Shown piece by piece: positions 18,272 through 61,699 of a stretch of DNA of 62,869 nucleotides. The DNA is from an uncultured Gammaproteobacteria bacterium. GTDB taxonomy: Bacteria > Patescibacteriota > Microgenomatia > Levybacterales > GWA1-39-11. Location: NCBI GenBank assembly GCA_964568885.1, contig CAZMSF010000004.1, positions 1 to 62,869 of the forward strand. The letters run 5' to 3'. Position 1 is the stretch's first letter. The number at the start of each line of letters is the position of its first letter. A program made the translations under genes and the position numbers. The notes under the pieces are model-generated. The model made no database searches and was not told the DNA's origin. It worked only from the letters and a program-made list of their open reading frames with translations.

Positions 18272-19294
18272 ATGATACAGAAGAAAAGAATTTTATTCCT
18301 CACAAGATTATACCATCCTCACATAGGCGGTGTCGAGAAGCACGTTGAAGAGCTGTCTTCAGTGTTCATAAAAAAGGGGTACGAAATAACTATCATTACG
18401 GAAAAATTCAATAAGAAACTTCCGGGAAGTGATGTAATAAAAGGGTGCAAAGTATATCGCATTGATATTCCGGGTAACGCCTTTCTAAAAAAATTTTTTA
18501 TATGGAAATGGATGGTTCTCCATGTGAATATAATAGCCCAGTCAGATATCTTGCATATCCATGACGTGTTTTATTGGTATATTCCTTTTCGTTTTTTATT
18601 TTTATTTAAAAAAACATACATAACCTTCCATGGTTACGAGGGATTTCCGATAAAAAGGACATGGAAAATGCAAAGGAAATTGGCTGAAGTGCTCACAAAT
18701 GGCAATATATGCGTCGGAGAGTTCATGAAAAAGTGGTATAAAACACGTCCTACCTCAGTCATCTATGGTGGAGTGAGGCTGGAAGGCAAAAAATATATGT
18801 CAAAAGCACGTACGGGTGTATTTTTTGGGAGACTAGATGGGCAAACAGGAATACTCGACTATATAAAAGCCTATAATTTGGTAAAAAGGAAATATCCCGA
18901 TTTTGTGATGACTGTTGTCGGGGAGGGGAAATTAAAAGTCCGTATTCCTAAAGGAGTAAATGTTATCGGGTTTCGGAAGGATATTTATCCCTATATTCAA
19001 AAGAATAGACTAATATTTGTTTCAAGGTATCTATCAATGCTTGAGGCACTTGCTTCAAAAAGGGAAGTTATCGCAACCTACGACAATGCTGTAAAAAGGG
19101 ATTATCTGCTTCTTTCCCCCTTCAAAAAATACATTCATGTTGGAAGTAGTGCCTCAGAAATTGCAGATATCGTAATAACGCTTCTTGGACGAAAAACACC
19201 ATCAAAAGAGCTTTATATGGGAGCAAAATGGGCTCAAACTCAGACGTGGGATAAAGTTGCAACAACCTATCTTTCCCTTTGGAATACAAAATAA
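18272..19294 (+). CDS. Glycosyltransferase, GT4-type (GT-B fold)
   Basis: N-terminal LTRLYHPHIGGVEKHVEEL motif and typical GT1/GT4 size. Extended -10 TGATATTAT at 18253..18261. Confidence 0.75.
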   Translation: MIQKKRILFLTRLYHPHIGGVEKHVEELSSVFIKKGYEITIITEKFNKKLPGSDVIKGCKVYRIDIPGNAFLKKFFIWKWMVLHVNIIAQSDILHIHDVFYWYIPFRFLFLFKKTYITFHGYEGFPIKRTWKMQRKLAEVLTNGNICVGEFMKKWYKTRPTSVIYGGVRLEGKKYMSKARTGVFFGRLDGQTGILDYIKAYNLVKRKYPDFVMTVVGEGKLKVRIPKGVNVIGFRKDIYPYIQKNRLIFVSRYLSMLEALASKREVIATYDNAVKRDYLLLSPFKKYIHVGSSASEIADIVITLLGRKTPSKELYMGAKWAQTQTWDKVATTYLSLWNTK

Positions 19295-20970
19295 TACGTC
19301 AAATATAGAAGGGTTGAGGCAAATGCAAAAAGACTTATTGTGTTTCCCAGCCTTCTTACGGGAGTATCCTCAAATTTTAATGACACTTTATATGTGCCCT
19401 CAGGCAATGTAAATGTAATAAGTCCGGTTTTCCCATTGTCCACCATAAATTGATGTATTTTCCCGTTCACATATAAATTCCAGCCAGGAAAATACAGAGT
19501 GTTTTCTCTAATGGAAGACTCTTTTAGTACTCTGATAGCATATTCATGCACAATAGGAGTTCTTTTGGTGGACTTTATCAGTGCTTCACCTTTTAAAACG
19601 GCAATAGGAGAAGCGGGGTGAGTTGCGAACCAAAGGTTTGTATTGTCCCTCCATCTCGGAACCGCGGCTTGTAGCCCTTCTCCCTCGGAGGTTGCAATGG
19701 GTACATGCCGGATAAGGTATTCATCGGTAATGTCAGTTATCATGCCTCTCGTTCCCCAATTGAGTATCGTTAGTACTATCGCAAAGAAAGCAAGCGTTAC
19801 AATAACCTTCCGGTTCATGTACTCCGAAGAAATGCCTCCAACAATTGCCAGTACGAATGAAATAGGAAGCATGAGACGGTATGCAAATTGAAAATTTGTC
19901 ATCATTGGAAGGCTTTTCCAGAGAGGCAAAGATATGGGAAAGAGTAAAAAAAGTAAAGCAAAAAAAATTGAAAGACTTCCAATAAGAATTTTTTTATGGA
20001 TTTTTTTTATTCGCGATTTCATTAAAAAGACCAAGGCAACTATAAGCATGAGCAGTTGGATAATTCCCATAGGAAAGGAGATCTGACCCGTAGGTCCTTG
20101 ATAGAGAAAACCATATCTCCATGGAGAAAGAAAATAAAGAGAAGGGTTTTCAAAAGAGATGCTTTTCCCGAATTGATGCTGCAGCGTAGAAGTTGTTTCT
20201 GCGAGTGCTGGAAGCCAATAAAATGAAGCGAAAAAAAGGCCTGTTGTTAATGCTAAAAATACCCGGGCTTTATTTACTTTTTTGATGAAAAGTGGAAGTG
20301 TAAAAATAAAAGGAGTTGCAACAACAGTGATTGCCGGGTGGGAAAGAATAAGAGCTGCATAACAAACGGCACAGAAGAAGAAATTCCATACCGATATTTT
20401 CATTGAGAGTTTTATCGTAAAATAAAACACAAAAGGTAAAAGGGCGTATGCAAATAATTCACCTATTGCTACTCTAAAATGCATATCCACGAGATGGTAG
20501 GGGGCAAATAAATATAAAATGCTTGAAAATGCCGAAGGCACGGGTTTTAAAAACGTACGTGTCATTTTGTACATTCCTATTCCGGAAAATATGAATGTAC
20601 CTGCAATAAGAATTTTTTCGGAAAGAATGAAAGAGATGCCAAAAATTTTCAAAACTGCCAGAAGGTAGTAGGGTAAAGGATAAATAAAAATAAAAAGCGG
20701 ATATCCGTATGTGAAATTAAGAACTGCCGCCCAATGCACCGGAAAAATTCCATATTGCAAAGAATTCCATAAATCAACTGCCCGCTCTATGTGGAGAGCA
20801 AAATCCCCGCTTTGATGGACTCCTTTTCTGAGTAACGAAATGAGAGGAAGCAGTGACGCAAGTATGGTTATTTGGAAGGGGTAATTTTTCGACTTACGTA
20901 GAAAAAAAGAAATTGTCACAAAAAGAAAAAGTGCAATAAGGCTGACAACAACAAGTCGGTACGATTCCAT
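19267..20970 (-). CDS. Large polytopic membrane protein, GT-C-like (PTPS-related/YfhO-like) with C-terminal extracytoplasmic domain
   Basis: At least 12 TM helices, a first-loop motif SGDFALHIERAVDLW and a soluble C-terminus. The start is set to ATG 20970 (M58), because upstream starts overlap the divergent GT2 gene. Confidence 0.5.
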   Translation of the reverse strand: MESYRLVVVSLIALFLFVTISFFLRKSKNYPFQITILASLLPLISLLRKGVHQSGDFALHIERAVDLWNSLQYGIFPVHWAAVLNFTYGYPLFIFIYPLPYYLLAVLKIFGISFILSEKILIAGTFIFSGIGMYKMTRTFLKPVPSAFSSILYLFAPYHLVDMHFRVAIGELFAYALLPFVFYFTIKLSMKISVWNFFFCAVCYAALILSHPAITVVATPFIFTLPLFIKKVNKARVFLALTTGLFFASFYWLPALAETTSTLQHQFGKSISFENPSLYFLSPWRYGFLYQGPTGQISFPMGIIQLLMLIVALVFLMKSRIKKIHKKILIGSLSIFFALLFLLFPISLPLWKSLPMMTNFQFAYRLMLPISFVLAIVGGISSEYMNRKVIVTLAFFAIVLTILNWGTRGMITDITDEYLIRHVPIATSEGEGLQAAVPRWRDNTNLWFATHPASPIAVLKGEALIKSTKRTPIVHEYAIRVLKESSIRENTLYFPGWNLYVNGKIHQFMVDNGKTGLITFTLPEGTYKVSLKFEDTPVRRLGNTISLFAFASTLLYLTYYFVFQRER

Positions 20971-20977
20971 TAGTGGT

Positions 20978-21006
20978 ATTATAACGCCTGGAAAAAGCGG
21001 TATAAT
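20978..21006. promoter_or_regulatory. Back-to-back -10 hexamers for divergent genes
   Basis: TATAAT on the plus strand (21001..21006) lies 7 nt before ATG 21014. TATAAT on the minus strand (20983..20978) lies 7 nt before ATG 20970. Confidence 0.4.
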
Positions 21007-21013
21007 AGCAAAA

Positions 21014-21940
21014 ATGAAAAAAGCATTCATAACTACCGTATATAACGAGGAAAAAACAATAGCTCTTCTTTTAGACAGTCTGCTGAAGCAAAATGAAATT
21101 CCGAACGAAATAATTCTCGTTGATGCTTTCTCGAAAGACAAAACATTTCAAATCCTCAGTGATTTCAAAAAAAAGTACCCAAAACTTATTAAAGTTTTTC
21201 GGAAAAAAGGGAACCGTTCGGAAGGCAGGAATTTTGCAATCAAAAATGCAAGGTCGGATATCATTGCGGCAAGTGATAGCGGATGCATTCTTAAGAAAGA
21301 CTGGTTTAACGAAATAACAAAGCCATTCAAGGAAAAAAATATCGACGTAGTTGCAGGATTTTACAAACCGATAACAAGAAATAGCTTTGAAAAATGCCTG
21401 TCTGTTTATACCTGTGTTATGGAGGATAAAGTCACAAAGGATTTTTTACCGTCTTCCAGATCCATTGCTTTTCGAAAGAATGCTTGGAAGAATGTGGACG
21501 GTTATCCCGAGCAACTTGATACATGTGAAGATTTGGTGTTCGCGAAAAAAATGAAAAAAGAAGGAATGAAATTTTCAGTAAACAAAAAAGCAATAGTTTA
21601 TTGGCCCCAGCGTAAAAATATTCTTCAAGCGTTCCGACAATTCTTTAGCTACGCCAAGGGAGATGGGAAAGCATTATATATAAGGCGTCAAACACCCTTC
21701 CTTTTTATTAGGATGATTGGTGGATTCCTTTTATTGTTGCTATTGTTTTACTCACCCAGCACTCAGAACAAATTGATAATATTGGTGTTAATGCTGCTAT
21801 ATTCAATATTGTCTGTCTTAAAAAATGCTCGCTATATTAACCATACAAAAGATGTTTTGAATTTGATTTTATTACAATTATCCTCGGATATTGCAGTCTT
21901 TTTTGGTTTTATTTATGGTGTATTCAAAAGACTTGGGTAA
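21014..21940 (+). CDS. Glycosyltransferase family 2 with C-terminal TM segments
   Basis: FITTVYNEEKTIALLLDSLLKQ...IILVDAFSKDKT (GT-A DxD region), CEDLVF, and a hydrophobic C-terminal third. Confidence 0.8.
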   Translation: MKKAFITTVYNEEKTIALLLDSLLKQNEIPNEIILVDAFSKDKTFQILSDFKKKYPKLIKVFRKKGNRSEGRNFAIKNARSDIIAASDSGCILKKDWFNEITKPFKEKNIDVVAGFYKPITRNSFEKCLSVYTCVMEDKVTKDFLPSSRSIAFRKNAWKNVDGYPEQLDTCEDLVFAKKMKKEGMKFSVNKKAIVYWPQRKNILQAFRQFFSYAKGDGKALYIRRQTPFLFIRMIGGFLLLLLLFYSPSTQNKLIILVLMLLYSILSVLKNARYINHTKDVLNLILLQLSSDIAVFFGFIYGVFKRLG

Positions 21941-21942
21941 AG

Positions 21943-23400
21943 TTAAGCAAAAGAGCTTATTATAAGTTTGATACTTAATTTCAATGTTTTTGGTGTAAAC
22001 ACCTGTACTAAGGTAAAATAACTGGCTGTTGCAATAACTACTTTTACAAAAAAATCGACAATTGTCTTTGATTCATAGAAATTTATTAAATAAAAGCAGC
22101 AGGAGCTCAAAAGTAAAATCAATGCATTTGACAATAAAATCTTCGTTAGGTTTATAGATATCTCGGACCTTCGGCAAAAGATTATGAATGCAAAAAACAA
22201 AATAGCATTGCTAACGAAAAACCCTACGGCAATTCCATAAAAACCAAGTCTTATCATTAATAAATACGAAATTAAAATTTCAAATAAAGTTATCAGGGAA
22301 CCTACTACAAGCATTAATCTCAATTTGCCGACTGCAAGTAGAGCATGCCCCATAAGTCCGTTTCCGTTAAGAAAAAAAATGCTTGCAACATACCATATTA
22401 GCGCCGGTAAGGCGGGAAGCCATCTGTCATTTAAAAAATAATGGATGGTATCATAGCCAAAAATAACTGTTATTGGAATTGCAAATATAGCGGCAATACT
22501 CAGAATACCAAATGCATGTTCAAGAGAAGTCGCAATAATCTTTTTGTCATTCTGCATTCTTGAAAAGGATGCAAATGAAACTCTTCCGACATTGTCGATA
22601 AATACCCGAGGAAAGGAAGAGATATTATAGCTCCAGTCAAGAAGTCCAACTTGGGCGGTTGGCAGATTGACACCTGCCATAACAGGTATTGTAGAATTTT
22701 TTATTACCGACAAAATTAGACCAAGCTGAAAATATTTCCCTACGTTTATATAATTCCTCACCTCCTTTAGATTAAATTCCAATACTGGGACTAATGGTTT
22801 GTAGATAAATGTGACCGTGTTTTCTATAATCGTTTTAACAACAACCGCCCACACAAAACTCCAAATTCCAAATCCGATATTTGCCATTACAATTGCGATT
22901 ATGTAATAAGAAATAATGCCGCTAACATCAATAATTGCGATAGCTTTGTATTTTAAATCCCGTTCCAAAAGAGATGTTATAAGTGATTGCATGGGTTTTA
23001 GTAAAAGCGTTATTGAAAGAATATTAAGCATCGTTAGCTCACTCGGTCCAAAACTTGGATATATGAAATGAAGGAGCGGAGCTATTATAAAAAGAAGTAC
23101 TACTGCTATGGCAGCCATTGCGAATTTAATATATAAGATTGTGGAAATCTGTCTTTTTGATGCGTTTTCATTCTTCTGAATTAACGAGAGATTGAGTCCG
23201 ATGTCCGTAAATATTTCCGCTATTCCAAGGATAAAGGAGAGTATCGCAAATATTCCAAATGCAGAAGGCGAAAGAAGCCTGACGAGTAAAATTTGACCTA
23301 AGATTGCGATTCCTTTCATTCCCACCTCTCTCCACAATAATTGCGCCGTTCCCTTGACAGTCTTTTTCTTGAGTCGTTGGAGGTGAATCTTCGAAGCCAT
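21943..23400 (-). CDS. Oligosaccharide/polysaccharide flippase (Wzx-like, MOP superfamily)
   Basis: 485 aa with about 12-14 TM helices and an N-terminal basic stretch followed by LLVRLLSPSAFGIF, typical of polysaccharide biosynthesis (Wzx) proteins. Confidence 0.7.
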   Translation of the reverse strand: MASKIHLQRLKKKTVKGTAQLLWREVGMKGIAILGQILLVRLLSPSAFGIFAILSFILGIAEIFTDIGLNLSLIQKNENASKRQISTILYIKFAMAAIAVVLLFIIAPLLHFIYPSFGPSELTMLNILSITLLLKPMQSLITSLLERDLKYKAIAIIDVSGIISYYIIAIVMANIGFGIWSFVWAVVVKTIIENTVTFIYKPLVPVLEFNLKEVRNYINVGKYFQLGLILSVIKNSTIPVMAGVNLPTAQVGLLDWSYNISSFPRVFIDNVGRVSFASFSRMQNDKKIIATSLEHAFGILSIAAIFAIPITVIFGYDTIHYFLNDRWLPALPALIWYVASIFFLNGNGLMGHALLAVGKLRLMLVVGSLITLFEILISYLLMIRLGFYGIAVGFFVSNAILFFAFIIFCRRSEISINLTKILLSNALILLLSSCCFYLINFYESKTIVDFFVKVVIATASYFTLVQVFTPKTLKLSIKLIISSFA

Positions 23401-23422: not shown

Positions 23423-24100
23423 TTACTTCAGCAGATTGTTCTTCTTAAACTCTTCCCATGCCTTATCAAATTCTATAATAGTTTCTTCGGTCTTTTTCTC
23501 CACAAGCATTGCACTCAGTATAGTTGGCGGAATTGTAACAATATCGCTTCCGCAAGCAAAAGCATTGCCGACATCTCTCACATTTCGAATAGAGCCGGTA
23601 ATAATTTGGGTTTTGTAATCTCCATAATCAATAAAATTTCTTGATCTTTTTATTATTTCAAGTCCATCATAGCCAACATCATTTGCCCTGTTTAGAAAAA
23701 TACTTGCGTAGGTAGCTCCTGCGTTTATTGCAAGCAGCATTTGTTCAAAAGAAACCATGACGGTTGCGTTAGTTTTGATTTTTAACTTTGAGAGACATTT
23801 TATTGCAGTTAAGCCTGTACCATCTATTGTCATCGGGACCTTAATTACCACGTTTTTATCCCAACTTGAAATTTTTTTTGCTTCCTTTATCATGCCATCC
23901 AAAGTGTCATGGGTAGTTAATTCTATAGAGACGGGAACATTTATGAGTTTGCAGATTGAGAGGACAGTTTTTTTAAAATCAATATTTTTTTGTAATGAAA
24001 ATATTTTTTGATTTGTTGTAACTCCACTTAAAGATAGACGGTTTTTCCATTCCTTTATATCAGAAATACTTGCAGTATCTATGAAAATTGAACGTGCCAT
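23423..24100 (-). CDS. Transaldolase / fructose-6-phosphate aldolase family (TalC/Fsa-type, 225 aa)
   Basis: IFIDTASISDIKEW...GVTTNQ and the Schiff-base lysine context VVIKVPMT. Confidence 0.85.
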   Translation of the reverse strand: MARSIFIDTASISDIKEWKNRLSLSGVTTNQKIFSLQKNIDFKKTVLSICKLINVPVSIELTTHDTLDGMIKEAKKISSWDKNVVIKVPMTIDGTGLTAIKCLSKLKIKTNATVMVSFEQMLLAINAGATYASIFLNRANDVGYDGLEIIKRSRNFIDYGDYKTQIITGSIRNVRDVGNAFACGSDIVTIPPTILSAMLVEKKTEETIIEFDKAWEEFKKNNLLK

Positions 24101-24127
24101 TGGTATGATTTAAAAATAATCATACCA
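24101..24127 (-). promoter_or_regulatory. Perfect 10-bp stem-loop filling the intercistronic gap and abutting the transaldolase ATG
   Basis: TGGTATGATT-7 nt loop-AATCATACCA. On the mRNA strand the 3' arm is immediately followed by the ATG (24100). No U tract follows on either strand. Confidence 0.5.
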
Positions 24128-24132
24128 CAATG

Positions 24133-24912
24133 TTAGGTGTTATCAAAAAGAATTTTTATGGTGCTGTAGTTGAAGTTAAGTTTATGATTGCGAAGCATAT
24201 TTTCTATCATAGCCTTTTTGTCTAATCTTTTTTTAGCTCCTGTTTTATATGCAATAATGCCCAAACTTAATGGGAGAAGATCCTCGTCATAACAGCATCG
24301 AAAAATCAACATATGTTGAAATCCGGCATTCCTGAATATTTTTTTTAGTGTTTCTTTATCGAAAAGAGTTTTATGTAATTGTGCTAACCACCACGTCGGT
24401 GCTTGTTCAGGATCGCCGTGCGTAAGTCTATATGCTTGATGAAGGTCGAACAATTTTCTTTTGGTCATTTTTTGCTTTGAAAGATAAGAGCGGGATATTT
24501 CTTCAAAATCGGGAATACTAAAAATGGCTGCTGTCCCTCCTTTTTTTAGGACTCGATAAATTTCGTTAATGGTTTTCTGCCTTTCAGAAAGATATACGTG
24601 TTCTAAAAAGGCATTCGCAAATACATATTCTACAGAGCTGTTTGGTAAAAACTTGAGGTCGGTACAATCTGAAATAATATCTGTGGCGGTCGTTGCCCGA
24701 ATATCAACGTTAATGAAGTTATCAATCTTAATTTCTCCGCACCCCAAATGTATTTTGTGTGATCTTTTTAATAAATCAGATATTGTGAGTTTGTTGTAAT
24801 AGGACGTAAATACCCAGTAAATATATTTACAAGAAAAAATGCATTTTTTCAATGAACCCTTAACAAAGGGAGGGAGCATATGTTTTACTTGAGCTTTAAG
24901 ATTGACCGACAT
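24133..24912 (-). CDS. Class I SAM-dependent methyltransferase
   Basis: Motif I-like IHLGCGEIKID and post-I/II LKKGGTAAIFSIPD. Embedded in the heptose operon. Confidence 0.65.
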   Translation of the reverse strand: MSVNLKAQVKHMLPPFVKGSLKKCIFSCKYIYWVFTSYYNKLTISDLLKRSHKIHLGCGEIKIDNFINVDIRATTATDIISDCTDLKFLPNSSVEYVFANAFLEHVYLSERQKTINEIYRVLKKGGTAAIFSIPDFEEISRSYLSKQKMTKRKLFDLHQAYRLTHGDPEQAPTWWLAQLHKTLFDKETLKKIFRNAGFQHMLIFRCCYDEDLLPLSLGIIAYKTGAKKRLDKKAMIENMLRNHKLNFNYSTIKILFDNT

Positions 24913-24917
24913 ATGAA

Positions 24918-25517
24918 TTATTTTTTACTTTTTATTACTTCCAATGCTTGATCTAAATTCTTAACAATAAATTTTGGCGGCGATCCCTTCAGCCGTTCTT
25001 CAAACTCTTCAAGATAAACAGTTTCGTTCACGTTGGTGATCAGGATTGTTTTTAATCCAACAGCATTTCCGGCTATTATATCGAATAGGCCGTCTCCAAT
25101 TGCCCATGATTTTTTTGGATCGATATCAAACCTTTTTATTGCTTTCGCGTATGACAAGGTTTTGGGTTTTCGACAGAAGCAGTCTTTTCTATATTTTTTG
25201 ACATCCGCAAATGGATGATGAAAGCAGTAATATTCGGCATCGAGTGTTACGCCTTTCTTTTTCAACTCTTTTTTTATGTAGGTCGTCAAACTTTTAAATT
25301 GTTCCATACTCATTTTCTTTATCCCAATATTGGGTTGATTGGAAACAACTATCAGCAAATAACCTAATTTTTTTGCTTCTATCAGAAGGTTGAAAATCCC
25401 AAACACAAATTCTACCTGGGCTTGATTAAGCGGTGTATGAATTATCCCTAGTTCCGTATCATAATGGAGTTTATTAATAATTCCATCTTTGTCCAAAAAT
25501 ATTGCTTTTTTTTTCAT
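24918..25517 (-). CDS. gmhB: D-glycero-D-manno-heptose 1,7-bisphosphate phosphatase (HAD)
   Basis: HAD motif I FLDKDGIIN, VVSNQPNIG, zinc-binding CFHHP...DCFCRKPK, and GDGLFDI. Confidence 0.85.
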   Translation of the reverse strand: MKKKAIFLDKDGIINKLHYDTELGIIHTPLNQAQVEFVFGIFNLLIEAKKLGYLLIVVSNQPNIGIKKMSMEQFKSLTTYIKKELKKKGVTLDAEYYCFHHPFADVKKYRKDCFCRKPKTLSYAKAIKRFDIDPKKSWAIGDGLFDIIAGNAVGLKTILITNVNETVYLEEFEERLKGSPPKFIVKNLDQALEVIKSKK

Positions 25518-26868: not shown

Positions 26869-26871
26869 AAT

Positions 26872-27904: not shown

Positions 27905-27986
27905 TTTGACTCGAGCTATCTTGATTTAAGTAATTCAGTTTTAATTATGATGTTTTTTTGTATAATGTGTTACGTGTTATTTGGCT

Positions 27987-44395: not shown

Positions 44396-44441
44396 ACTAA
44401 GTATAGTTTAAGATTTTTCCACCTGTCTTCGTAATCCTATT

Positions 44442-49779: not shown

Positions 49780-49822
49780 AAAGACGATTTGAATATAATA
49801 TACCACAGCATTTGAATAGTAA

Positions 49823-55057: not shown

Positions 55058-55748
55058 AAGTGTAAAGACATTGGAGATACTTGAAGGTGCTGACAATTAT
55101 AATAGTTGGATTGCATCAAGAGTAAAAAAGTTCATTGAAAGTCCTGCCCTCGAAATTGGCGCGGGGACAGGGAATATTTCAGAATATTTCTCAGATCTTA
55201 AAGAATTGGTACTTAGCGATAACGACGTAAATTTAGTGGAATGCTTGAGAAACAAATTTGGCGGAAAAAAGAATGTAAGGGTTGAAATCTTGGATATCTC
55301 GAAGCACTTTTCAAAAATTATCAATAAATTCTCTTCAATATATGCAATTAACGTGCTGGAGCACATCGAACAAGATACTATCGCGCTTTCAAATATAAAC
55401 CGGCTCTTGAAATCGGATGGAAGGGTGGTATTACTTGTTCCTGCAAAGAAATTTGCCTATACGAAACTTGACAAAAGCTTGGGGCATTTTAGAAGGTATG
55501 AAAAAAAAGAATTGAGGGAAAAGCTGGAAAGAGCAGGATTTACGGTTGAATATCTTGAATATTTCAATATTGTTGGGCTTTTCAGCTGGCTCATACGGAC
55601 CAAATTAACCCGTAAACACAGCGAGTTAAAAAGTTCACACGTAAAGCTTTTTGACTTTATTGTTCCCATTCTAAGAAAAACAGAACCGGTAAACGGAATG
55701 CCATTGGGAATTTCACTCATTGCGGTCGGAAAAAAAGTAAGACTGTAG
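55044..55748 (+). CDS. Class I SAM-dependent methyltransferase
   Basis: Motif I ALEIGAGTGNISEYF, plus INVLEHIE and LKSDGRVVLLVP. Confidence 0.8.
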   Translation: MTKYKSVKTLEILEGADNYNSWIASRVKKFIESPALEIGAGTGNISEYFSDLKELVLSDNDVNLVECLRNKFGGKKNVRVEILDISKHFSKIINKFSSIYAINVLEHIEQDTIALSNINRLLKSDGRVVLLVPAKKFAYTKLDKSLGHFRRYEKKELREKLERAGFTVEYLEYFNIVGLFSWLIRTKLTRKHSELKSSHVKLFDFIVPILRKTEPVNGMPLGISLIAVGKKVRL

Positions 55749-55782: not shown

Positions 55783-56529
55783 ATGAAAAGCTCTCTTAGT
55801 ATCGTTGTTTTGACTCATAATGACGAGAGTAAAATTGTAGATTGCCTTGAGTGCCTGAGTTTCGCCGACGAGTTGATAGTTGTGGATGACAACTCGCATG
55901 ACAGGACGGTAGAGCTGGCAAAACAATTTACCGATAAAATATATGTACGGGAGCTTAATAGGAATTTTTCCAATCAGCGGAATTTTGCATTAAACAATGT
56001 GCACTCAACCTGGGTTCTATTTGTTGATTCGGACGAATTGGTCTCAAAAGCATTGAGAGATGAAATCCTTCAAGCTATCGAAAAAAAGGGTATTTCCGGA
56101 TTTTCCTTAAAGAGATTTGATTATGTGTGGGGTAAAAAAATGACACATGGAGAGTTAAGCCAAGTTAAACTTTTAAGATTGGCAAAAAAAGATGACGGCA
56201 AATGGCATGGTAAAGTTCATGAAACATTGAAAGTTATCGGAGAAATTGGAGAGCTTGCTCAGCCTTTGCTGCATGTACCTCATCAGAATATTAAAGAATT
56301 TGTCTCGGATATTGACGAATACTCAACGCTTAGAGCTGAAGAACTTATGGAGAAGGGTGTTTCATCGTCGGTTTTTCAAGTCATATGTTTTCCTCTTGGT
56401 AAATTCATTCAGAATTATATAGTAAGACAAGGATACAAAGATGGAATCCCCGGAATGCTATACGCATTAATGATGAGCTTTCATTCGTTTTTAGTGCGGG
56501 CAAAATTATATCAGCTCAATCATGGGTAG
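55783..56529 (+). CDS. Glycosyltransferase family 2
   Basis: LSIVVLTHNDESKIVDCLECL...LIVVDDNSHDRT and FVDSDE (DxD). Confidence 0.85.
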   Translation: MKSSLSIVVLTHNDESKIVDCLECLSFADELIVVDDNSHDRTVELAKQFTDKIYVRELNRNFSNQRNFALNNVHSTWVLFVDSDELVSKALRDEILQAIEKKGISGFSLKRFDYVWGKKMTHGELSQVKLLRLAKKDDGKWHGKVHETLKVIGEIGELAQPLLHVPHQNIKEFVSDIDEYSTLRAEELMEKGVSSSVFQVICFPLGKFIQNYIVRQGYKDGIPGMLYALMMSFHSFLVRAKLYQLNHG

Positions 56530-58090
56530 ACGTTCCACGAAGAGTAGTTTCGGTAATTCCTTTGCATTGTTTTTGACAAGTAAGTGGCCCGTAGCTTTAT
56601 TGCTTTTCCTTTTCGCTTTTTCCATACGGTTACTTACTCTTAACAAAATCGGGAAAACGTGGGATGAGGGCGCATATGTCGAATTGGGCCACAGATATGT
56701 CGAGTTGGCGCTCAAACATGACTTTGCAAATTCATATTGGTATCTACAGTCGGATCATCCTCCGCTGGCACGGTATATCTACGGTTTGGCGAGTACTTTT
56801 GACAGTAAAAATGTCGACGGTAAGGTCATCTTCAATAATTCGTACACTGTCTCGCGAGTAGTATCGGCTCTCATGGGTTCACTTGCTGTGTTGTTTGTTG
56901 CGCTCATCGGGTACAAGTATTTTTCCTCTTTTGTTGCAATTTCGTCGGGTTTAATTTTTGCGCTTATTCCTTTTTTTGTCGGATTGTCGCAACTCGGGAC
57001 CCTTGAAAGCCCGATTATGCTTTTTTTCACAGCGAGCGTATTCTTTTTCTTGGAATACCTGTCAAAACCTACAAGTAGAAATCTCATTGTTACCGGTGTG
57101 CTTCTCGGCTGCTCAGTTCTTGTTAAACAGTCAAATATCATTATTGTTCCACTTCTTTTTTTTATTGCGATTACAAAAAATGTAACAGCAGGGAAAAAAA
57201 TAAAGAGAAAAACATTGTTTTTTGACATAAGAAGTATTGCATTTATAATTCTTATCTCATTCTTCACCTGTTTCGCGCTTTGGCCAATGCCGTTTTTTCA
57301 CCTCAATGAGCTTTTGGAAGTACAAAATAAGATGTGGGTGCTCGCAGTGAAGCTTCCGCCGCCCGAAGTTTATTTTGGAGTATTGCGTTTGGTTCCGAAG
57401 CCATACTATGTAGTCATGTTTCTTTTTACAACTCCTCTGCTTCTTTTAGTGTTGGGAATTCTGGGAGGAGCGAAGGTATTAATGAGAAAGAAATTCATGA
57501 TGGTTGTTGTGTTGGTTTGGTTTTTCTTTCCATTTTTTCAGACGTTCTATCCTTTTAAACAACATGGCGTGCGGTATATTATTGAAATTTATGCACCTTT
57601 TTCTTTACTGTGCGGTATTGGATTGGAATTCTTTTGTGAAGCACTGCGAAAAGTACAATACATAAAATCAATTTCGATAGCTTTTGTCCTTGTGTATCTT
57701 TTCATTGTGTTATCAAAAGTTTCACCGTATTATCTTGATTATTTCAATGAGATTATCGGCGGGAACAATTATGTATATCGACACACATTATTCCAGATGG
57801 GGTGGTGGGGACAGGGCATCGAAGAAGCTGTAAAATTTATTTCATCAAAAGAAAAAAATGTAGTAACCGTTGCAGTCAATGGGCCACAGCCTGCAACTGT
57901 TGTGCCTCGTTTATGGAATATAAAAACGGTCTATTACAATAGAAATTCGGATTCCGATTATGTTATTGTCCCATATTTTGATGTAGTAAGGCTTGGTTTT
58001 CCGGAGGAAGAATTAAAGGCAAAATATAAAGAAGTGCATAGTGTTTTTGTCGACAATGCAAAGCTCGTGAAAGTCTACAAGCACATTTAG
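56522..58090 (+). CDS. GT-C membrane glycosyltransferase, PMT/ArnT-like (GT39/GT83-type)
   Basis: First-loop WDEGAYVELGHRY...SDHPPLARYIYG, typical of PMT_2/ArnT-like enzymes. About 12 TM helices and a soluble C-terminus. Confidence 0.75.
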   Translation: MGRRSTKSSFGNSFALFLTSKWPVALLLFLFAFSIRLLTLNKIGKTWDEGAYVELGHRYVELALKHDFANSYWYLQSDHPPLARYIYGLASTFDSKNVDGKVIFNNSYTVSRVVSALMGSLAVLFVALIGYKYFSSFVAISSGLIFALIPFFVGLSQLGTLESPIMLFFTASVFFFLEYLSKPTSRNLIVTGVLLGCSVLVKQSNIIIVPLLFFIAITKNVTAGKKIKRKTLFFDIRSIAFIILISFFTCFALWPMPFFHLNELLEVQNKMWVLAVKLPPPEVYFGVLRLVPKPYYVVMFLFTTPLLLLVLGILGGAKVLMRKKFMMVVVLVWFFFPFFQTFYPFKQHGVRYIIEIYAPFSLLCGIGLEFFCEALRKVQYIKSISIAFVLVYLFIVLSKVSPYYLDYFNEIIGGNNYVYRHTLFQMGWWGQGIEEAVKFISSKEKNVVTVAVNGPQPATVVPRLWNIKTVYYNRNSDSDYVIVPYFDVVRLGFPEEELKAKYKEVHSVFVDNAKLVKVYKHI

Positions 58091-58797
58091 TTAGCACCAA
58101 GCCGTATCCGAATTAAATCTCTTACCGAAATGTAGATTTCATGGAGATCAGCTTTTGAGCCACCCAATCTTCTATTCACGAAAGTTGTTGGTCGTTCTCT
58201 CAATTTATACCCTTTTCTGAAAAGATAATATGTCGCTTCGGGTATTGTAACAAATCCGGTGCTTTTGAAATCGTAGTTTACCAACAATTCGACTGCAGTT
58301 CTTGGGTATAATCTGAAGCCATTCGTATTGTCATGAATTGGTAATCCAAAAAGCAAAGAATTAAAAGAATTCGCAAGCTTACTAAGCAATCTCCTGTGAT
58401 ATGGACTATTGATGATCTTGCTTCTTTTTAAATAGCGCGAAGCGATTACGACTGTCTTGTTATCGGTAAGTTTAAGCAGCTGCGGCAATTCATCGGGGTC
58501 GTGGGAAAGGTCGGCATCCATTTCAATAAATGTTTGTGATTTAAAGTGGGTAAGCGCATATCGAAATCCATGGAGTACAGCGGTCCCTCTGCCCATTTTT
58601 GATTTTCTTTTGAGATGCAGAACTGTTTTGTATTTTTTCGTAAGTGCAGAAAGAACTTCTTTTGTGTTATCTTTTGAATTATCATCAACAACAACTACAT
58701 AAACTCTTCTGACGTTTTTAAATATTTTTGGAATAAGAATTTTTAAATTTTCCGCTTCGTTGTAAACAGGTACTACAATTGTGGGTGGCAAATTCAT
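58087..58797 (-). CDS. Short GT2, polyprenol-monophosphate sugar synthase-like (Dpm1/Ppm1-type)
   Basis: IVVPVYNEAENL, VVVVDDNSKDNT and RKSKMGRGTAVLHGF. The start is set to ATG 58797 (M23 of the tracked ORF). Confidence 0.75.
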   Translation of the reverse strand: MNLPPTIVVPVYNEAENLKILIPKIFKNVRRVYVVVVDDNSKDNTKEVLSALTKKYKTVLHLKRKSKMGRGTAVLHGFRYALTHFKSQTFIEMDADLSHDPDELPQLLKLTDNKTVVIASRYLKRSKIINSPYHRRLLSKLANSFNSLLFGLPIHDNTNGFRLYPRTAVELLVNYDFKSTGFVTIPEATYYLFRKGYKLRERPTTFVNRRLGGSKADLHEIYISVRDLIRIRLGAN

Positions 58798-58863
58798 GGA
58801 AAAAGTATAGTTCGTAGCTTTGCTTCGTGCAATAACCAATTTTTTGCATAGTATAATAGCCAT

Positions 58864-58956
58864 ATGAAAAAAATTGACATGTTTTATCTATTGTGGAGCA
58901 TTCTCATTCTTGGAGCATATCTTTTTCATATTATTTGTAAATCCGGAAGATGTTAA
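58864..58956 (+). CDS. 30-codon single-TM micro-ORF overlapping the start of the next gene
   Basis: MKKIDMFYLLWSILILGAYLFHIICKSGRC. TATAAT (58852..58857) lies 6 nt upstream. Its stop overlaps ATG 58950 (AGATGTTAA). It is too short to appear in the ORF track. Confidence 0.3.
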   Translation: MKKIDMFYLLWSILILGAYLFHIICKSGRC

Positions 58957-60509
58957 AAATCGCATTTTTAATCGGTATTTATTCATATTGCGTATTACTG
59001 CTTGGCCTTGCAGGTTGCCTTAGAGTTTCGTTTCTGTTGCCGCTCACTGTGTTATTTGTGCTTGTTAGCTTGTATTTAATGCAAGAAGAACTGAAATATA
59101 TAGGGAGGGCAAAGAGTATCTTTAATAAAAAAAAGGAAAGGGTTCTGTTTCTTTTTCTTGGGCTACTATTACTTGTAAATCTTATTGGTGCACTCGGACC
59201 GGAGCTGGCGTTTGACGCATTATGGTATCACTTAACAATCCCAAAAATTTATTTATTGCATGCAAAGACATATTTTATACCGGGAAATCTTTTATATTAC
59301 AACCTGATGCCGAAGCTTTCCGAAATGTTGTATGTTGCCGCTCTTGCATTAGGGAATGAAATTGTTGCCAAAATGGTGCATTATTTCTTTGGTATTTTAT
59401 CCTGCATTGCGCTATACAGACTTTCCCGTTTGTATCTTACGAGGAGTTGGGCAATTGTCGCGGTCATCGTTTTTTATTCCAACCTCGTCATTTCTTGGCT
59501 TTCCATTACCGCATATTCCGATTTGCCCCGGGTATTTTTTGAAATACTTTCATTCTATTATTTTTTGTTGTACACAAAGAAAAAGAAGAATTCTCATTTT
59601 GTTGCAAGCGCATTGTTATTGGGTTTTGCGATTTCGACAAAAGTTCTTGCAGTCGGAACGGTTGCAATATTTGGCGTTCTTATTTGGTCTTTAAAGTTAA
59701 ATACGCGTATCAAATTGAGGAGAATGCTTTTTTTCTCTTTACTCTCGCTTCTGGTCCCTCTTCCTTGGTTTGTAATTTCCTATATGAATACTGGTAACCC
59801 CGTTTTTCCGCTGTTTACTCATTTAGGATTAAGAAATTTTTCTTTTCAACTCTTATCTCCCTTCACCATCGTAAAAACATTCATGAATATATTTCTTTTT
59901 TCATCCGACCCAATAAGCCCTATATACATAATTTGTCTTCCTTTGGTTTTTCTTTTGTTAGTTTCGAAATTCAAAACATACAAGCTTCTTTTTCTTTATT
60001 CAGTTATTTCATTCATTATTTGGTATACGACATCTCAATCGGGAGGGGCAAGGTTTCTTTCAGCATATTTGCCCGTATATACACTCCTTTCAGTATTGGC
60101 GATAAGTAGCCTTAAAAGAAAAATGATTGTTTCAATTTCTTTTGGCCTGATACTTTTCATTGCCGTTGTAACAATTGTGTACCGGGCTACGGCAAACGCA
60201 AGATATATTCCGGTACTGTTAGGACTTCAGACAAAACAAGATTTTTTGATGAAGAATCTTAATTTTTCTTTTGGAGATTTTTATGATGAAAATTCAGAAA
60301 TAAAGAAAATAGTCGGGGAAGAGACTGTCGAATTATTGAACATGCACAATCTTTATTATGTCGATTTCCCTTTTACTCTTAGTGAGTTTTCGGAAGACAA
60401 AAAAGCTACATATGTTCTTGTCCAAAGTGGAGATATTCCCCAAAGCTATAGAAATACCCGACTTATCTATAAAAACGATAAAACCCATGTTAAACTCTAT
60501 AAATTATGA
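58950..60509 (+). CDS. Polytopic membrane protein, GT-C-like
   Basis: About 13 TM helices, a loop motif PELAFDALWYHLTIPK and a soluble C-terminal domain. Confidence 0.5.
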   Translation: MLKIAFLIGIYSYCVLLLGLAGCLRVSFLLPLTVLFVLVSLYLMQEELKYIGRAKSIFNKKKERVLFLFLGLLLLVNLIGALGPELAFDALWYHLTIPKIYLLHAKTYFIPGNLLYYNLMPKLSEMLYVAALALGNEIVAKMVHYFFGILSCIALYRLSRLYLTRSWAIVAVIVFYSNLVISWLSITAYSDLPRVFFEILSFYYFLLYTKKKKNSHFVASALLLGFAISTKVLAVGTVAIFGVLIWSLKLNTRIKLRRMLFFSLLSLLVPLPWFVISYMNTGNPVFPLFTHLGLRNFSFQLLSPFTIVKTFMNIFLFSSDPISPIYIICLPLVFLLLVSKFKTYKLLFLYSVISFIIWYTTSQSGGARFLSAYLPVYTLLSVLAISSLKRKMIVSISFGLILFIAVVTIVYRATANARYIPVLLGLQTKQDFLMKNLNFSFGDFYDENSEIKKIVGEETVELLNMHNLYYVDFPFTLSEFSEDKKATYVLVQSGDIPQSYRNTRLIYKNDKTHVKLYKL

Positions 60510-61699
60510 GCGGTACGCTTGGAAAAATACTTTTTTTTGCCCTTCTCGCAACATTTCCGCTTGGCTTGCTCGTAAGACTTAGGCTAGCTACCAATATATA
60601 TATTACTCCACAAGACATTCTTGTATTCCTTCTTTTTGTTCTGACCGTTACCAAATTTTTTAGGAAAAGTAGACCGATTTTTTCAGATAAATTTATTTTC
60701 TTTCAATTACTGTTTTTACTTATTGGTGGACTGAGTCTTATTGTCAGCTCCTTTTTGCATGGGGAGATAAATCTCTTAGTCTCTTTTCTCTATCTTTTGA
60801 GGTATATTTTCTACCTATCTCTTCTTAATGTTGGTAATCTCTTCGAAAAAACCGGAGCTGAACGAAAAATTTTAACACTGACAGGGATTGCCGTTCTTTT
60901 ATTGGGATACCTACAATACTTCCTGTATTATGATTTAAAGTACTTGTATTATTACGGATGGGACAACCACCTATATCGGCTTTTTTCGTCCTTTCTTGAC
61001 CCAAATTATGCAGGAGTATTCTATTCGCTTTTCTTTATTTTTATTTTTTCACCTGTCTTATATTTGAGAATAAAACAAAGTTACAGAGAGCTTGTCCTTT
61101 CCTTCTTTACCGTAATTGCACTTTACCTTACTTACTCAAGAACGGCACTTATTGCTCTTCTTGCGGGTATTGTTTCCATCGCGGTTCTTAAAGGTAAAAT
61201 ACGCGTGTTACTTCTTGCTTTGGCTGCTTTTTCTATACTTCTTGTAACGCTCTCAGATACGTCAATTGAAGGACTCAATCCACTAAGAACGGCATCATCG
61301 ATAGAACGGGTCATTTCAGCGAAAGAAGCTTGGCAAATTTTTACCGAGAGCCCACTAATAGGAAGCGGATTTAACTCATATCGATATACCATGATAAGAT
61401 ACGGATTCAGGAATCCAACGGGTGCATCCCTGAGTAATGCCGACGCTGGAACCGACAATAGCTTTCTCTTTGTTTTGGCAACGAGTGGAATTTTTGGCTT
61501 TGCTTTCTTTGCTTTAAGCTACATTTTTCTTTTAAGAAAACTTTACAGTGAGCGCGGAACGATTGGAATTATCCCTCTTTGTTTGGTTATCTCTTTTCTT
61601 GCTGCAAGCCTTTTTCTCAACGTATTGTTTTATACGCCTATACTGACTTTTATATTCATCACAATTTCTCTGAGGAAGCGGATATTTGGAAAAACCTGA
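60506..61699 (+). CDS. O-antigen ligase/polymerase family (Wzy_C-type) membrane protein
   Basis: LTYSRTALIALLAG motif and a periplasmic loop with SGFNSYRY and NADAGTDNSFL. About 10 TM helices. Confidence 0.7.
   Translation: MSGTLGKILFFALLATFPLGLLVRLRLATNIYITPQDILVFLLFVLTVTKFFRKSRPIFSDKFIFFQLLFLLIGGLSLIVSSFLHGEINLLVSFLYLLRYIFYLSLLNVGNLFEKTGAERKILTLTGIAVLLLGYLQYFLYYDLKYLYYYGWDNHLYRLFSSFLDPNYAGVFYSLFFIFIFSPVLYLRIKQSYRELVLSFFTVIALYLTYSRTALIALLAGIVSIAVLKGKIRVLLLALAAFSILLVTLSDTSIEGLNPLRTASSIERVISAKEAWQIFTESPLIGSGFNSYRYTMIRYGFRNPTGASLSNADAGTDNSFLFVLATSGIFGFAFFALSYIFLLRKLYSERGTIGIIPLCLVISFLAASLFLNVLFYTPILTFIFITISLRKRIFGKT

Follow-up and report, generated by a model that had tools for sequence, protein, structure and literature searches.

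Gene content of the island

The sequence analysed here (hereafter the window) comprises positions 1 to 62,869 of contig CAZMSF010000004.1 of assembly GCA_964568885.1, and this report concerns a block of surface-glycan genes of about 43 kb located at positions 18272 to 61699. The left 18 kb of the window carry ftsZ, ileS, ftsW/rodA, rplU, parB and lepB, the right end carries atpC, and the block lies between lepB and a Wzy_C gene beside the atp operon. Its GC content is approximately 0.35, as compared to approximately 0.40 to the left, and 39 credible genes are packed into it with hardly any spacer. In a set of contigs representing one genome per species, relatives of the isoleucyl-tRNA synthetase (IleRS) belonged almost entirely to Candidatus Levybacteria/Levyibacteriota or other Microgenomates, the best being 90% identical, and the host is therefore assigned to the Levybacteria (Patescibacteria, or candidate phyla radiation, CPR). 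The block is most likely a variable envelope-glycan island of Candidatus Levybacteria at a fixed chromosomal site. Many Levybacteria/Patescibacteria metagenome-assembled genome records with shared synteny and an IleRS 60-90% identical are titled 'uncultured Gammaproteobacteria bacterium', which looks like a labelling error in deposited third-party annotation (TPA) assemblies.

Pfam was searched with 60 open reading frames (ORFs) of the window, among them all 40 within 18272-61699 that have a length of 100 aa or more. Genes are named below by their first coordinate. The domain counts of an initial annotation, made by motif reading, were all reproduced: there are seven family 2 glycosyltransferase (GT2) domains (21014+, 32047+, the N-terminal half of 35438+, 45698-, 49093-, 55783+ and 58087-), two GT4 enzymes (18272+ and 32953+), one GT17 enzyme (30980-), six S-adenosylmethionine (SAM) methyltransferases (24133-, 27981+, 30051-, the C-methyltransferase 40176-, 50743- and 55044+), two membrane SGNH proteins (28675- and 34085+), one Wzx-like and one Wzy-like protein. 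The heptose, C-methyl, amino and uronic sugar pathways that it had named are likewise present by Pfam, as a heptose block, a DegT aminotransferase with a hexapeptide acetyltransferase, a nucleoside diphosphate (NDP)-sugar dehydrogenase and several short-chain dehydrogenase/reductase (SDR) epimerases/dehydratases; as most of their NCBIfam matches are under the equivalog cut-offs, these pathways merely resemble the named ones. In the list below, GT-C denotes the polytopic membrane class of glycosyltransferase and TM a transmembrane segment.

18272..19294 (+): GT4 (Glyco_transf_4 1.4e-14); first gene after lepB, in the conserved left core
19267..21141 (-): GT-C of the PTPS_related family (PF10131 1.1e-14, 54 bits)
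21014..21940 (+): GT2 with three C-terminal TM segments (PF00535 3.6e-23; best PDB match TarS 5tze)
21943..23400 (-): MOP-family (Wzx-like) flippase (Polysacc_synt_3 1.3e-48)
23423..27858 (-): heptose block, comprising FSA/transaldolase, methyltransferase, GmhB-like phosphatase, HddC-like nucleotidyltransferase, GmhA-like isomerase and HddA-like kinase (Pfam)
27981..28682 (+): SAM methyltransferase (Methyltransf_24, O-methyltransferase-like; PF13578 3.7e-19)
28675..30048 (-): membrane-anchored SGNH/GDSL protein with 3 N-terminal TM segments (PF13472 4.5e-13); paralogue of 34085+ and 1138+
30051..30971 (-): SAM methyltransferase (PF13489 1.4e-22)
30980..31936 (-): GT17-family glycosyltransferase (PF04724 1.5e-27, 97 bits)
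32047..32949 (+): soluble GT2, rhamnosyltransferase-like (PF00535 1.5e-26; NCBIfam rhamnosyltran 4e-31)
32953..34062 (+): GT4 (PF00534 8e-15; NCBIfam generic GT4 models only)
34085..35434 (+): second membrane-anchored SGNH/GDSL protein (PF13472 2.1e-14; TM prediction)
35438..37675 (+): GT2::GT-C fusion (PF00535 6.5e-26; PF13231 5.3e-10 at residues 332-486)
37668..40244 (+): YfhO-like GT-C (PF09586 5.4e-9, 35 bits)
40176..41444 (-): sugar C-methyltransferase (PF08484 5.3e-40 and PF08421)
41484..42431 (-): NDP-sugar 4,6-dehydratase-like SDR (Epimerase 1e-42; dTDP-glucose 4,6-dehydratase 1e-40)
42799..44370 (+): GT-C of a rare un-named family (invariant D45-E46-G47-Q48 after TM1; AlphaFold2 model)
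44442..45701 (+): NDP-sugar 6-dehydrogenase, uronic acid branch (PF03721 3.6e-43; NCBIfam NDP-sugDHase 4.5e-101, over cut-off)
45698..46450 (-): short TM-less GT2 of the polyprenyl-phosphate sugar synthase type (dolichol-phosphate mannose synthase, DPMS, 5mlz 1.6e-11)
46447..46968 (-): hexapeptide acetyltransferase (PF00132 1.3e-12), in one operon with the 45698 synthase
46965..48059 (-): DegT-type sugar aminotransferase (PF01041 3.5e-105), in one operon with the 45698 synthase
48133..49101 (+): GDP-L-fucose-synthase-like SDR, 6-deoxyhexose branch (PF01370 4.7e-52; NCBIfam Fcl 6.7e-88, under cut-off)
49093..49806 (-): short TM-less GT2 of the AglJ/DPMS-like synthase type (DPMS 1.1e-20)
49823..50746 (+): SDR epimerase/reductase (PF01370 4.8e-47)
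50743..51651 (-): SAM methyltransferase (PF13489 2.4e-24)
51736..53259 (+): PMT_2-type GT-C with 10 TM segments and a soluble C-terminal domain (PF13231 3.3e-5, 24.6 bits)
53256..53732 (+): 158-aa single-TM protein (no Pfam or NCBIfam match)
53729..55057 (+): membrane-only polytopic protein, probably GT-C (AlphaFold2/Foldseek, homologues)
55044..55748 (+): SAM methyltransferase (PF08242 1.5e-11)
55783..56529 (+): soluble GT2 of the GmaR/SunS/TarS type (PF00535 8.2e-19; PDB GmaR 1.3e-15, SunS 1.6e-8)
56522..58090 (+): PMT-family GT-C (PF02366 3.9e-16; PF13231 1.4e-14)
58087..58863 (-): short TM-less GT2 of the DPM1/Ppm1 synthase type, between two GT-C genes (DPMS 1e-24)
58950..60509 (+): PMT_2-type GT-C (PF13231 2.4e-7; NCBIfam LIC_10190 family 5e-9)
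60506..61699 (+): Wzy_C/O-antigen-ligase-family polytopic protein, right-hand frame of the island (PF04932 5.8e-17)
61719..62450 (-): N-terminally anchored beta-sandwich protein, Glucodextran_B/cadherin-like (PF09136 1.7e-17)

The last of these lies just outside the island and is possibly part of the same system. The ORF at 42337-42705 (-) has no Pfam match, no gene is called there in a relative, and it is probably not a gene; it was treated as spacer between divergent operons. Within the heptose block, NCBIfam gave GmhB at 1.9e-36, gmhA at 8e-24, HddA at 1.5e-44 and HddC at 6e-22, all under the equivalog cut-offs. The SGNH/GDSL protein 28675 is likely an extracytoplasmic O-acyl transferase or esterase. 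A mobile-element or phage origin of the island was considered and rejected, as no tRNA, Rfam RNA, direct or inverted repeat of at least 40 nt, integrase domain or transposase domain was found; across the whole 62.9-kb window there was no tRNA, tmRNA or Rfam family at the gathering threshold.

The eight polytopic GT-C candidates

Eight large polytopic proteins had been proposed to be GT-C enzymes because an acidic motif was seen in their first extracytoplasmic loop and their C-terminal domain was read as soluble. Hydropathy analysis predicted 8-11 TM segments in all eight, and five (19267, the C-terminal half of 35438, 37668, 56522 and 58950) scored over the Pfam gathering score of a GT-C-type family, among them PF10131 and PF09586, which we take to be members of Pfam's GT-C clan. 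The sixth, 51736, was recognized through its homologues and the seventh, 42799, through its AlphaFold2 (AF2) model; the eighth, 53729, is a weak case. In seven of the eight families an acidic residue is conserved in the first predicted outside loop, its outside location being that of the predicted topology. That hallmark therefore stood for seven families, the comparison for 51736 comprising two sequences only, and the soluble C-terminal domain failed for 53729. Taken together, the data support a GT-C assignment for all eight proteins, weakly in the case of 53729.

For the PTPS_related protein 19267 about 10 TM segments are predicted, together with a domain on the outside and a further TM segment at the C-terminus, and D113 is conserved in 14 of 15 homologues. 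Alignments with the homologues from 15 related loci begin near residue 48, and the true start is probably some 40-47 codons downstream of the listed TTG, which would abolish the overlap with 21014. The YfhO-like protein 37668 is predicted to have approximately 11 TM segments, an outside domain of about 330 aa and a C-terminal TM segment, which fits the YfhO architecture; its YfhO match is over the cut-off but confined to the C-terminal 73 residues (748-820), and D30, D53 and E59 are conserved in 5/5 sequences. Among Genome Taxonomy Database (GTDB) species representatives no close homologue of this protein was found, only remote Bacteroidota matches, and the nearest representative (L001) is without a close one. 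For 56522 the PMT model (PF02366) scored 59.8 bits and PMT_2 55 bits; a W-D48-E49-G motif follows TM1, with D48/E49 present in 4/4 sequences, and the sole PDB sequence match is yeast Pmt1 (6p25, 6.4e-8, 35 bits). The 58950 protein matched PMT_2 with 31.5 bits, and its E85 and D89 are conserved in 5/5 sequences. With 24.6 bits against a cut-off of 26.1, protein 51736 fell 1.5 bits short of PMT_2. PF13231 is present in the majority of its full-length homologues, which are 33-72% identical to it, and one of them has been named ArnT-like.

The fusion protein 35438 consists of a cytoplasmic GT2 (approximately residues 1-260) followed by a PMT_2-type polytopic domain with a soluble C-terminus, the PMT_2 match being 40 bits. 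All 24 homologues compared have D or E at position 301, which follows the first TM segment of the GT-C half. More than 100 full-length homologues exist at the 50%-cluster level; among species representatives they are found only in Levybacteria and Woesebacteria, and a cluster look-up for the family returned no name. The possibility that the GT2 half is the donor synthase for its own GT-C half was considered and is unsupported, as this half is a paralogue of the rhamnosyltransferase-like 32047 (phmmer 1e-33) and is not Dpm1-like.

Protein 42799, for which the start had been placed at 42814, the second Met of the ORF, has no Pfam or NCBIfam match, and only 16 homologues were found among 5.8 billion clustered proteins. 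In this family D45-E46-G47-Q48 after TM1 is invariant (D45/E46 in 15/15), and a small alpha/beta domain forms the C-terminus. The check suggested with the initial annotation, prediction of structures followed by Foldseek, was carried out on this protein: its AF2 model, computed from the alignment of this family (pLDDT 75.6, pTM 0.78), is a helical bundle whose top 29 Foldseek matches in the PDB are all GT-C structures (STT3 at 3e-6, AftA, DPY19, PglB, ArnT, Pmt4, Emb and ALG9), and a GT-C fold is thus shown at the level of the model. A bacterial oligosaccharyltransferase was also considered and is unsupported: STT3 tops the fold search, but PglB, ArnT and AftA score about equally and there is no WWD motif, the conserved C-terminal residues being W486-x-V488-D489. 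The resemblance to STT3 is at fold level only (TM-score approximately 0.5, 10-12% identity).

The AF2 model of 53729 (pLDDT 86.7) is also a helical bundle, and Foldseek aligned it to EmbB, STT3, Pmt4 and ArnT with a probability of 0.92-0.99 and TM-scores of 0.42-0.47, but with E-values of 0.14-0.8. One of 25 homologues matched PMT_2 (3.6e-7). E115, R119, P120 and D125 are invariant, and E34 is found in 21/25. The gene is preceded by 53256, the start of which overlaps the stop of GT-C 51736 and the stop of which overlaps the start of 53729. The 53256 protein has a counterpart of 82% identity in L081 and one of 33% in L076, the latter adjoining a 53729-like gene, and is a possible accessory subunit.

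No detectably similar pair was found among the eight GT-Cs by phmmer, which indicates eight different GT-C lineages and not a recent expansion. An hhalign comparison of the 53729 and 42799 families was not significant, and an NCBIfam search with the GT-Cs gave almost no matches. Proteins 42799 and 53729 represent two un-named GT-C families outside Pfam.

Predicted polyprenyl-phosphate sugar synthases

Three short GT2s (45698, 49093 and 58087) had been described as Dpm1/GtrB/Ppm1-like, and this description was borne out. They are 237-258 aa long and have no TM segments. The best PDB match of all three is Pyrococcus DPMS, followed by ArnC and GtrB, and their top NCBIfam matches are AglJ, haloarchaeal dolichyl-phosphate hexose transferase, ArnC, PpgS and PgfS; all of these scores are under the equivalog cut-offs and so denote no specific orthology. 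The DPM1 signature is DADLSH.P, which contains a DAD-type metal-binding motif. The 58087 enzyme has DADLSHDP, matches DPMS over residues 21-253 and ArnC at 3.6e-11; 49093 has DADYQFQP and matches ArnC at 3e-14 (PDB), AglJ at 5.4e-38 (131 bits) and the dolichyl-phosphate hexose transferase at 8e-29; and 45698, the most divergent of the three, has AADEVGP in place of the DAD motif.

Used as controls, the GT2s 21014, 55783 and 32047 matched TarS, GmaR/SunS and a rhamnosyltransferase instead, with no polyprenyl-phosphate glycosyltransferase families. By this specificity of best matches 45698, 49093 and 58087, and exactly these three, are predicted polyprenyl-phosphate sugar synthases. As a fourth candidate, 21014 was considered for its C-terminal TM segments and rejected on its TarS match and lack of polyprenyl-phosphate families; a fifth, 55783, whose stop overlaps the start of the PMT-like GT-C 56522, was rejected on its GmaR/SunS matches.

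Conservation and variation among related loci

Loci of relatives were fetched for comparison and are referred to by L-numbers (L001, L083 etc.). The left core of the island, consisting of GT4 18272, GT-C 19267, GT2 21014 and the Wzx gene, follows lepB in L001 and L007 and is partly present in L003-L006. The GT4 is 79% identical in L001 and 42-59% identical at the equivalent site of other Levybacteria. In L040, L058, L064 and L077, lepB is followed almost directly by the right frame, a Wzy_C gene and a 61719-like gene; Wzy_C homologues occur also in L093, L095 and L097, and in all seven of these Levybacteria and Woesebacteria loci the beta-sandwich gene adjoins them. Its product might act as an acceptor, a chain-length factor or a scaffold.

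Among the loci retrieved by means of the fusion protein, two sub-modules recur. The first (A; L090, L091 and L098) comprises a GT4, the GT2::GT-C fusion, a YfhO-like gene, a 42799-like GT-C and a Dpm1-like GT2. The second (B; L092-L097, variously complete) comprises the fusion, a 55783-like GT2, usually a 58950-like GT-C, then Wzy_C and a 61719-like gene, and in some loci an upstream GT4 and a PMT-like GT-C as well. The window combines A with B and adds the heptose block and extra sugar pathways. By gene, a GT4 lies 5' of the fusion in 8 of 10 related loci (L083, L089-L093, L095 and L098; not L094, L096 or L097), a YfhO-like gene follows the fusion in L083, L090, L091 and L098, and a 55783-like GT2 is directly 3' of the fusion in L092-L097. 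The 42799-like GT-C adjoins a Dpm1-like GT2 in L090, L091 and L098, a 53729-like gene does so in L089 and L076, and 58950 homologues precede Wzy_C in L095. Synthases and GT-Cs are also neighbours in the window itself, at 56522/58087/58950 and from 42799 to 45698. The lepB/atp site of relatives thus holds smaller multi-GT-C islands with recurring GT-C/synthase neighbours, which answers the question of conservation raised with the initial annotation; since these carry three or four GT-Cs in 14 kb, several GT-Cs per island are normal for the lineage, and the island described here is especially large.

From position 32 kb to the atp operon (32-62.8 kb), the window shows gene-for-gene synteny with two contigs, Ga0172278_1017 (218 kb) from a JGI metagenome and one from Logan. 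When the window is compared with Ga0172278_1017 (L081/L083), cytoplasmic enzymes are 90-97% identical, whereas the GT-Cs are 49-85% identical (37668 49%, 42799 52%, the fusion 68%, 51736 73%, 56522 75%, 53729 82% and 58950 85%). For instance, 42799, at 52%, stands beside dehydrogenase 44442, at 97%, and DNA identity falls from about 87% to about 67%, or becomes undetectable, at 42.5-44.0 kb. This divergence suggests that the enzymes facing outward have been under diversifying selection or have had their alleles replaced.

Proposed mechanism

Three synthases, eight GT-Cs and the recurrence of synthase neighbours in other Levybacteria make several extracytoplasmic branches the best reading of the island. 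A multi-branch extracytoplasmic machinery had been proposed in the initial annotation and is upheld by these three lines of evidence, but the accompanying phrase 'rather than a classical Wzx/Wzy' cluster went too far. Since the locus also holds Wzx, Wzy_C, six soluble-type glycosyltransferases and nucleotide-sugar pathways, cytoplasmic lipid-linked assembly is equally indicated, and the two routes are most likely combined. We therefore favour, with moderate confidence, a hybrid in which a carrier-linked glycan is built inside and flipped, and several three-component branches resembling Gtr, Arn and Ppm1/Pmt act outside.

In such a scheme, pathways encoded in the locus would make activated sugars (GDP-heptose-like, a 6-deoxy/C-methyl sugar, an N-acetylamino sugar and a uronic acid), from which the soluble GT4, GT2 and GT17 enzymes would build an oligosaccharide on a polyprenyl carrier. 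The MOP/Wzx protein would flip this oligosaccharide, and the Wzy_C protein would polymerise it or ligate it to an acceptor. In parallel, the three DPM1/AglJ/ArnC-like GT2s would load single sugars onto polyprenyl monophosphate and, after flipping, up to eight GT-Cs would transfer them outside to the glycan, to surface proteins or to both; methyltransferases and membrane SGNH proteins would add methyl and acyl groups. Both routes may feed one product. Judged by gene neighbourhood, an Arn-like amino-sugar branch may comprise 42799 with the dehydrogenase, 45698, the acetyltransferase and the aminotransferase; a deoxy/methyl-sugar branch may comprise the Fcl-like enzyme, 49093, the epimerase, methyltransferases, 51736, 53256 and 53729; and a Ppm1/Pmt-like branch may comprise 56522, 58087 and 58950. 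The three-component mechanism, including variants with several GT-Cs and with MATE/MOP-type flippases for monophosphate donors, has been described (PMC11127046), and YfhO-type GT-Cs are known to glycosylate Ser/Thr-rich protein regions with GtrB/PgfS donors (PMC12041528).

Several observations weigh against this hybrid. The identification of 53729 as GT-C is probable and is the weakest of the eight. Most sugar-pathway NCBIfam matches, including those of the heptose block, are under the equivalog cut-offs, and for this reason the sugar identities are guesses. The many strand switches across the island leave its co-regulation as one unit unsupported, and a literature search returned no paper on Levybacteria envelope experiments or on CPR/Levybacteria glycosylation machinery. 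No small flippase of the GtrA/SMR type is encoded in the window, where there is no room for a GtrA-like gene. The Wzy_C protein 60506 has no PDB or NCBIfam match, and its possible roles as polymerase, ligase and O-oligosaccharyltransferase are indistinguishable. Finally, the initial annotation had found neither a WbaP/WecA-type initiating transferase nor Wzz, and Pfam agreed, giving no Bac_transf, MraY/WecA or Wzz domain in the 60 window ORFs.

A six-frame scan for the phosphoglycosyltransferase (PGT) motif cluster DE.PQ/GPRP/PG.TG was negative for the window and for all Patescibacteria loci fetched, and identified PGTs in four non-CPR loci that served as positive controls. In relatives, MraY/WecA-type motifs occur only upstream of IleRS, and in some of them only. 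When 104 ORFs that follow lepB in relatives were assigned to Pfam families, those counted included GT2 (20), GT4 (20), methyltransferases (14), PTPS_related (7) and Polysacc_synt_3 (5), and no primer family was among the 25 commonest; in the same set, 7 of the 104 ORFs were Peptidase_C39_2 proteins (L008, L010, L013, L015, L032 and others), a family not seen in the window. A primer would thus be encoded elsewhere or not be needed, and its absence here does not decide the type of the locus. The rhamnan clusters of streptococci and lactococci are likewise without their own TagO/GacO primer. As for the flippase, the MOP protein 21943 matched NCBIfam models for MOP flippase (2.6e-27), O-glycosylation flippase (6e-24) and TuaB (1e-23) and, though Wzx-like, could serve monophosphate donors. 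The Wzy_C domain is common to polymerases, WaaL ligases and PglL/PilO O-oligosaccharyltransferases; because the gene is kept at the island edge whatever the island content, a role as ligase or O-oligosaccharyltransferase is favoured by inference over that of a repeat-specific polymerase.

Alternative explanations

The island might instead be dedicated to protein O-glycosylation, a proposal we regard as unlikely. The GT-Cs (PMT-like 56522, YfhO-like 37668 and the PMT_2 types) would then modify Ser/Thr-rich surface proteins such as pilins, S-layer or membrane-anchored proteins directly from polyprenyl-phosphate sugars, as do Ppm1/Pmt in actinobacteria and GtrB/PgtC2 and PgfS/PgfM1 in streptococci, and Wzy_C would be a PglL-type O-oligosaccharyltransferase, a group in which this domain is common. 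This would agree with the passing PMT score of 56522, its loop 1 D-E pair and its sole PDB match to Pmt1, with the DPM1 motif DADLSH in the adjoining 58087, and with the presence of a YfhO-type GT-C, a type known to glycosylate proteins (PMC12041528). The closest matches of 55783 are the protein/peptide glycosyltransferases GmaR and SunS, and 21943 matches the O-glycosylation flippase model. The PMT and PMT_2 models, however, are matched as well by enzymes that act on lipids or glycans, ArnT among them, and teichoic acids are a further target of YfhO; no candidate acceptor protein was identified in the window, and eight GT-Cs with approximately 15 sugar-pathway genes exceed the needs of any known system of this kind. 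A cluster of the ordinary Wzx/Wzy type, making a capsule or secondary cell-wall heteropolysaccharide with its primer elsewhere and with redundant or unrelated GT-Cs gathered in a recombination hot spot, seems very improbable. Wzx, Wzy_C, soluble glycosyltransferases and sugar pathways are all present, in a mosaic with sharp identity breaks, many strand switches and a GC content below that of its flanks, but Wzz is absent and the three dedicated monophosphate-donor synthases would have no role in a pure scheme. As GT-C/synthase neighbourhoods recur in independent genomes and the GT-C families retain invariant catalytic-loop residues, this is the rival least compatible with the data.

The lack of a PGT could also be taken at face value. 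An envelope glycan primed without one by a DPM1/AglJ-like GT2 or a lipid-acting GT4, and then for the most part built or branched outside by the eight GT-Cs from polyprenyl-monophosphate donors, is about as doubtful in our estimation as dedicated protein O-glycosylation; if true, a logic like that of archaeal Agl or of lipomannan assembly, for which Patescibacteria offer no example so far, would be at work with at least two undescribed GT-C families and a lineage-specific fusion. An Agl-like monophosphate-carrier pathway is a further rival. Another would be a primer-independent lipoglycan of the lipomannan/lipoarabinomannan (LM/LAM) type, in which GT4s glycosylate a membrane glycerolipid inside and, after flipping, GT-Cs polymerise and branch it outside; there is only a slim chance of this. 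It would explain why no PGT occurs in the window and no Bac_transf motif in any fetched Patescibacteria locus, and the two GT4s, three Ppm1-like synthases and many GT-Cs follow the logic of PimA/PimB', Ppm1 and PimE/MptA-C/Emb/Aft, with GT4 18272 and GT-C 19267 forming a conserved core beside lepB. Against it, 18272 has no PDB sequence match and no detectable similarity to PimA/PimB, 32953 matches generic GT4 models only, no inositol or glycolipid-anchor genes were seen, and the Wzx-like flippase, Wzy_C, GT17 and soluble GT2s are typical of repeat-unit assembly.

Relationship to known systems

The initial annotation could not map this combination onto a described system, which was an overstatement, as each branch of the favoured hybrid maps to one or more of Gtr, Arn, Ppm1/Pmt, CsbB/YfhO, Pgf and GT136 (PMC11127046, PMC12041528). 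A synthase and a GT-C side by side are shared with the three-component systems GtrA/GtrB/Gtr(type) of Shigella and Salmonella, CsbB/YfhO and GtlA/GtlB of Bacillus and Listeria, and the pentofuranose GT136 system of Citrobacter (PMC11127046). As in Gtr-type serotype conversion, the synthase is conserved and the GT-C variable between strains; Gtr-type systems also act atop a separately assembled glycan, as proposed here, and a MOP/MATE-type donor flippase is possible. They differ in having one synthase and one GT-C, in contrast to three and eight in a single island, and the island has no GtrA/SMR-type flippase gene. Its synthases, unlike GtrB and ArnC, are without C-terminal TM helices, and one GT-C is fused to a GT2 that is not of the Dpm1 type. 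With respect to CsbB/YfhO, 37668 is YfhO-like and no CsbB orthologue was singled out; the same YfhO architecture is found in PgtC2/PgfM1 of the streptococcal GtrB/PgtC2 and PgfS/PgfM1/PgfM2 systems (PMC12041528). The pair 58087 (DADLSH, TM-less like the Ppm1 catalytic domain) and 56522 (PMT, loop 1 D-E, approximately 520 aa, no MIR domains) shares the architecture of Ppm1/Pmt, although no Ppm2/Lnt-like anchor partner was seen and similarity to characterised members is low.

The block 42799-48059 shares with the Arn (L-Ara4N) system a GT-C, a Ugd-like dehydrogenase, an ArnC-like GT2 and an ArnB-like DegT aminotransferase with an N-acyltransferase, and in both an amino sugar would be made, put on polyprenyl phosphate and transferred outside. 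It differs in that an acetyltransferase replaces the formyltransferase, homology to ArnT is not seen in the sequence of the GT-C, and there is no ArnA decarboxylase/formyltransferase, ArnD deformylase or ArnE/F (Pfam finding no formyltransferase or deformylase domain). To our knowledge the organism lacks lipid A. The Haloferax volcanii Agl cluster comprises AglJ, AglD, AglG, AglI, AglE, AglP, AglM, AglF, AglR, AglS and AglB, a parts list of DPM1-like GT2s, soluble GT2/GT4s, a SAM methyltransferase, an NDP-sugar dehydrogenase, a nucleotidyltransferase and a Wzx-like flippase that is also present here. In that system the glycan is carried on a monophosphate carrier without a PGT and a GT-C adds the final sugar from a monophosphate donor. 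Of the three synthases 49093 is the best AglJ scorer, but all Agl equivalog matches are far under the cut-offs and there is no AglB/STT3 orthologue.

The only well-studied bacterial case known to us in which many GT-Cs act from polyprenyl-monophosphate donors on one envelope polymer is LM/LAM/arabinogalactan assembly in mycobacteria and corynebacteria; LM/LAM synthesis is initiated by GT4 enzymes and can dispense with a PGT. The structures matched by 42799 and 53729 include AftA and Emb. However, sequence-level orthology is lacking, the LM/LAM genes are scattered while those described here form one island, no arabinose (decaprenylphosphoryl arabinose, DPA) pathway is present, and Wzx/Wzy_C-type genes are.

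Significance and flanking genes

The kinds of parts in the island are thus already known; their number and combination, in a CPR bacterium, are undescribed. CPR/Patescibacteria make up a large share of bacterial diversity, most are thought to be host-attached, and their surface chemistry is hardly studied. Should the genome equal the complete Levybacteria chromosome in size (about 1.1 Mb), the island would occupy approximately 4% of it. The island is hypervariable, its GT-Cs diverging much more rapidly than the cytoplasmic enzymes beside them, which suggests that surface glycans are under strong selection, as might be imposed by phages or by the recognition of a host. Two un-named GT-C families and a widespread uncharacterised GT2::GT-C fusion are offered by the island, and its clean synthase/GT-C pairs, being amenable to expression and assay, provide an experimental handle on CPR envelopes as well as additions to the catalogue of GT-C specificities for glycoengineering.

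Further glycan-modifying genes stand among the housekeeping genes to the left of the island, at 1138-2523 (+), 3218-4333 (+), 5923-6987 (-), 8508-9395 (+) and 10121-11821 (+). They encode a membrane SGNH protein, two Acyl_transf_3 (AT3) membrane acyltransferases, a polysaccharide deacetylase and a NodU/CmcH-type carbamoyltransferase. The SGNH protein (1138-2523) is a third paralogue of the two in the island (E 1e-98 to 1e-106), and the occurrence of AT3 and SGNH as separate proteins resembles a split OatA/OafA-type O-acetylation system. In the same flank the 215-aa ORF at 15551-16198 (+) overlaps ftsW and has an L21 domain from residue 111, its listed start probably being too far upstream. A DUF4258 protein (7021-7461, -) is divergent to a PD-(D/E)XK (Cas4-like) nuclease (7520-8461, +); both are kept in L001-L007, and the pair could be toxin-like or defence-related, unconnected with the glycan island.

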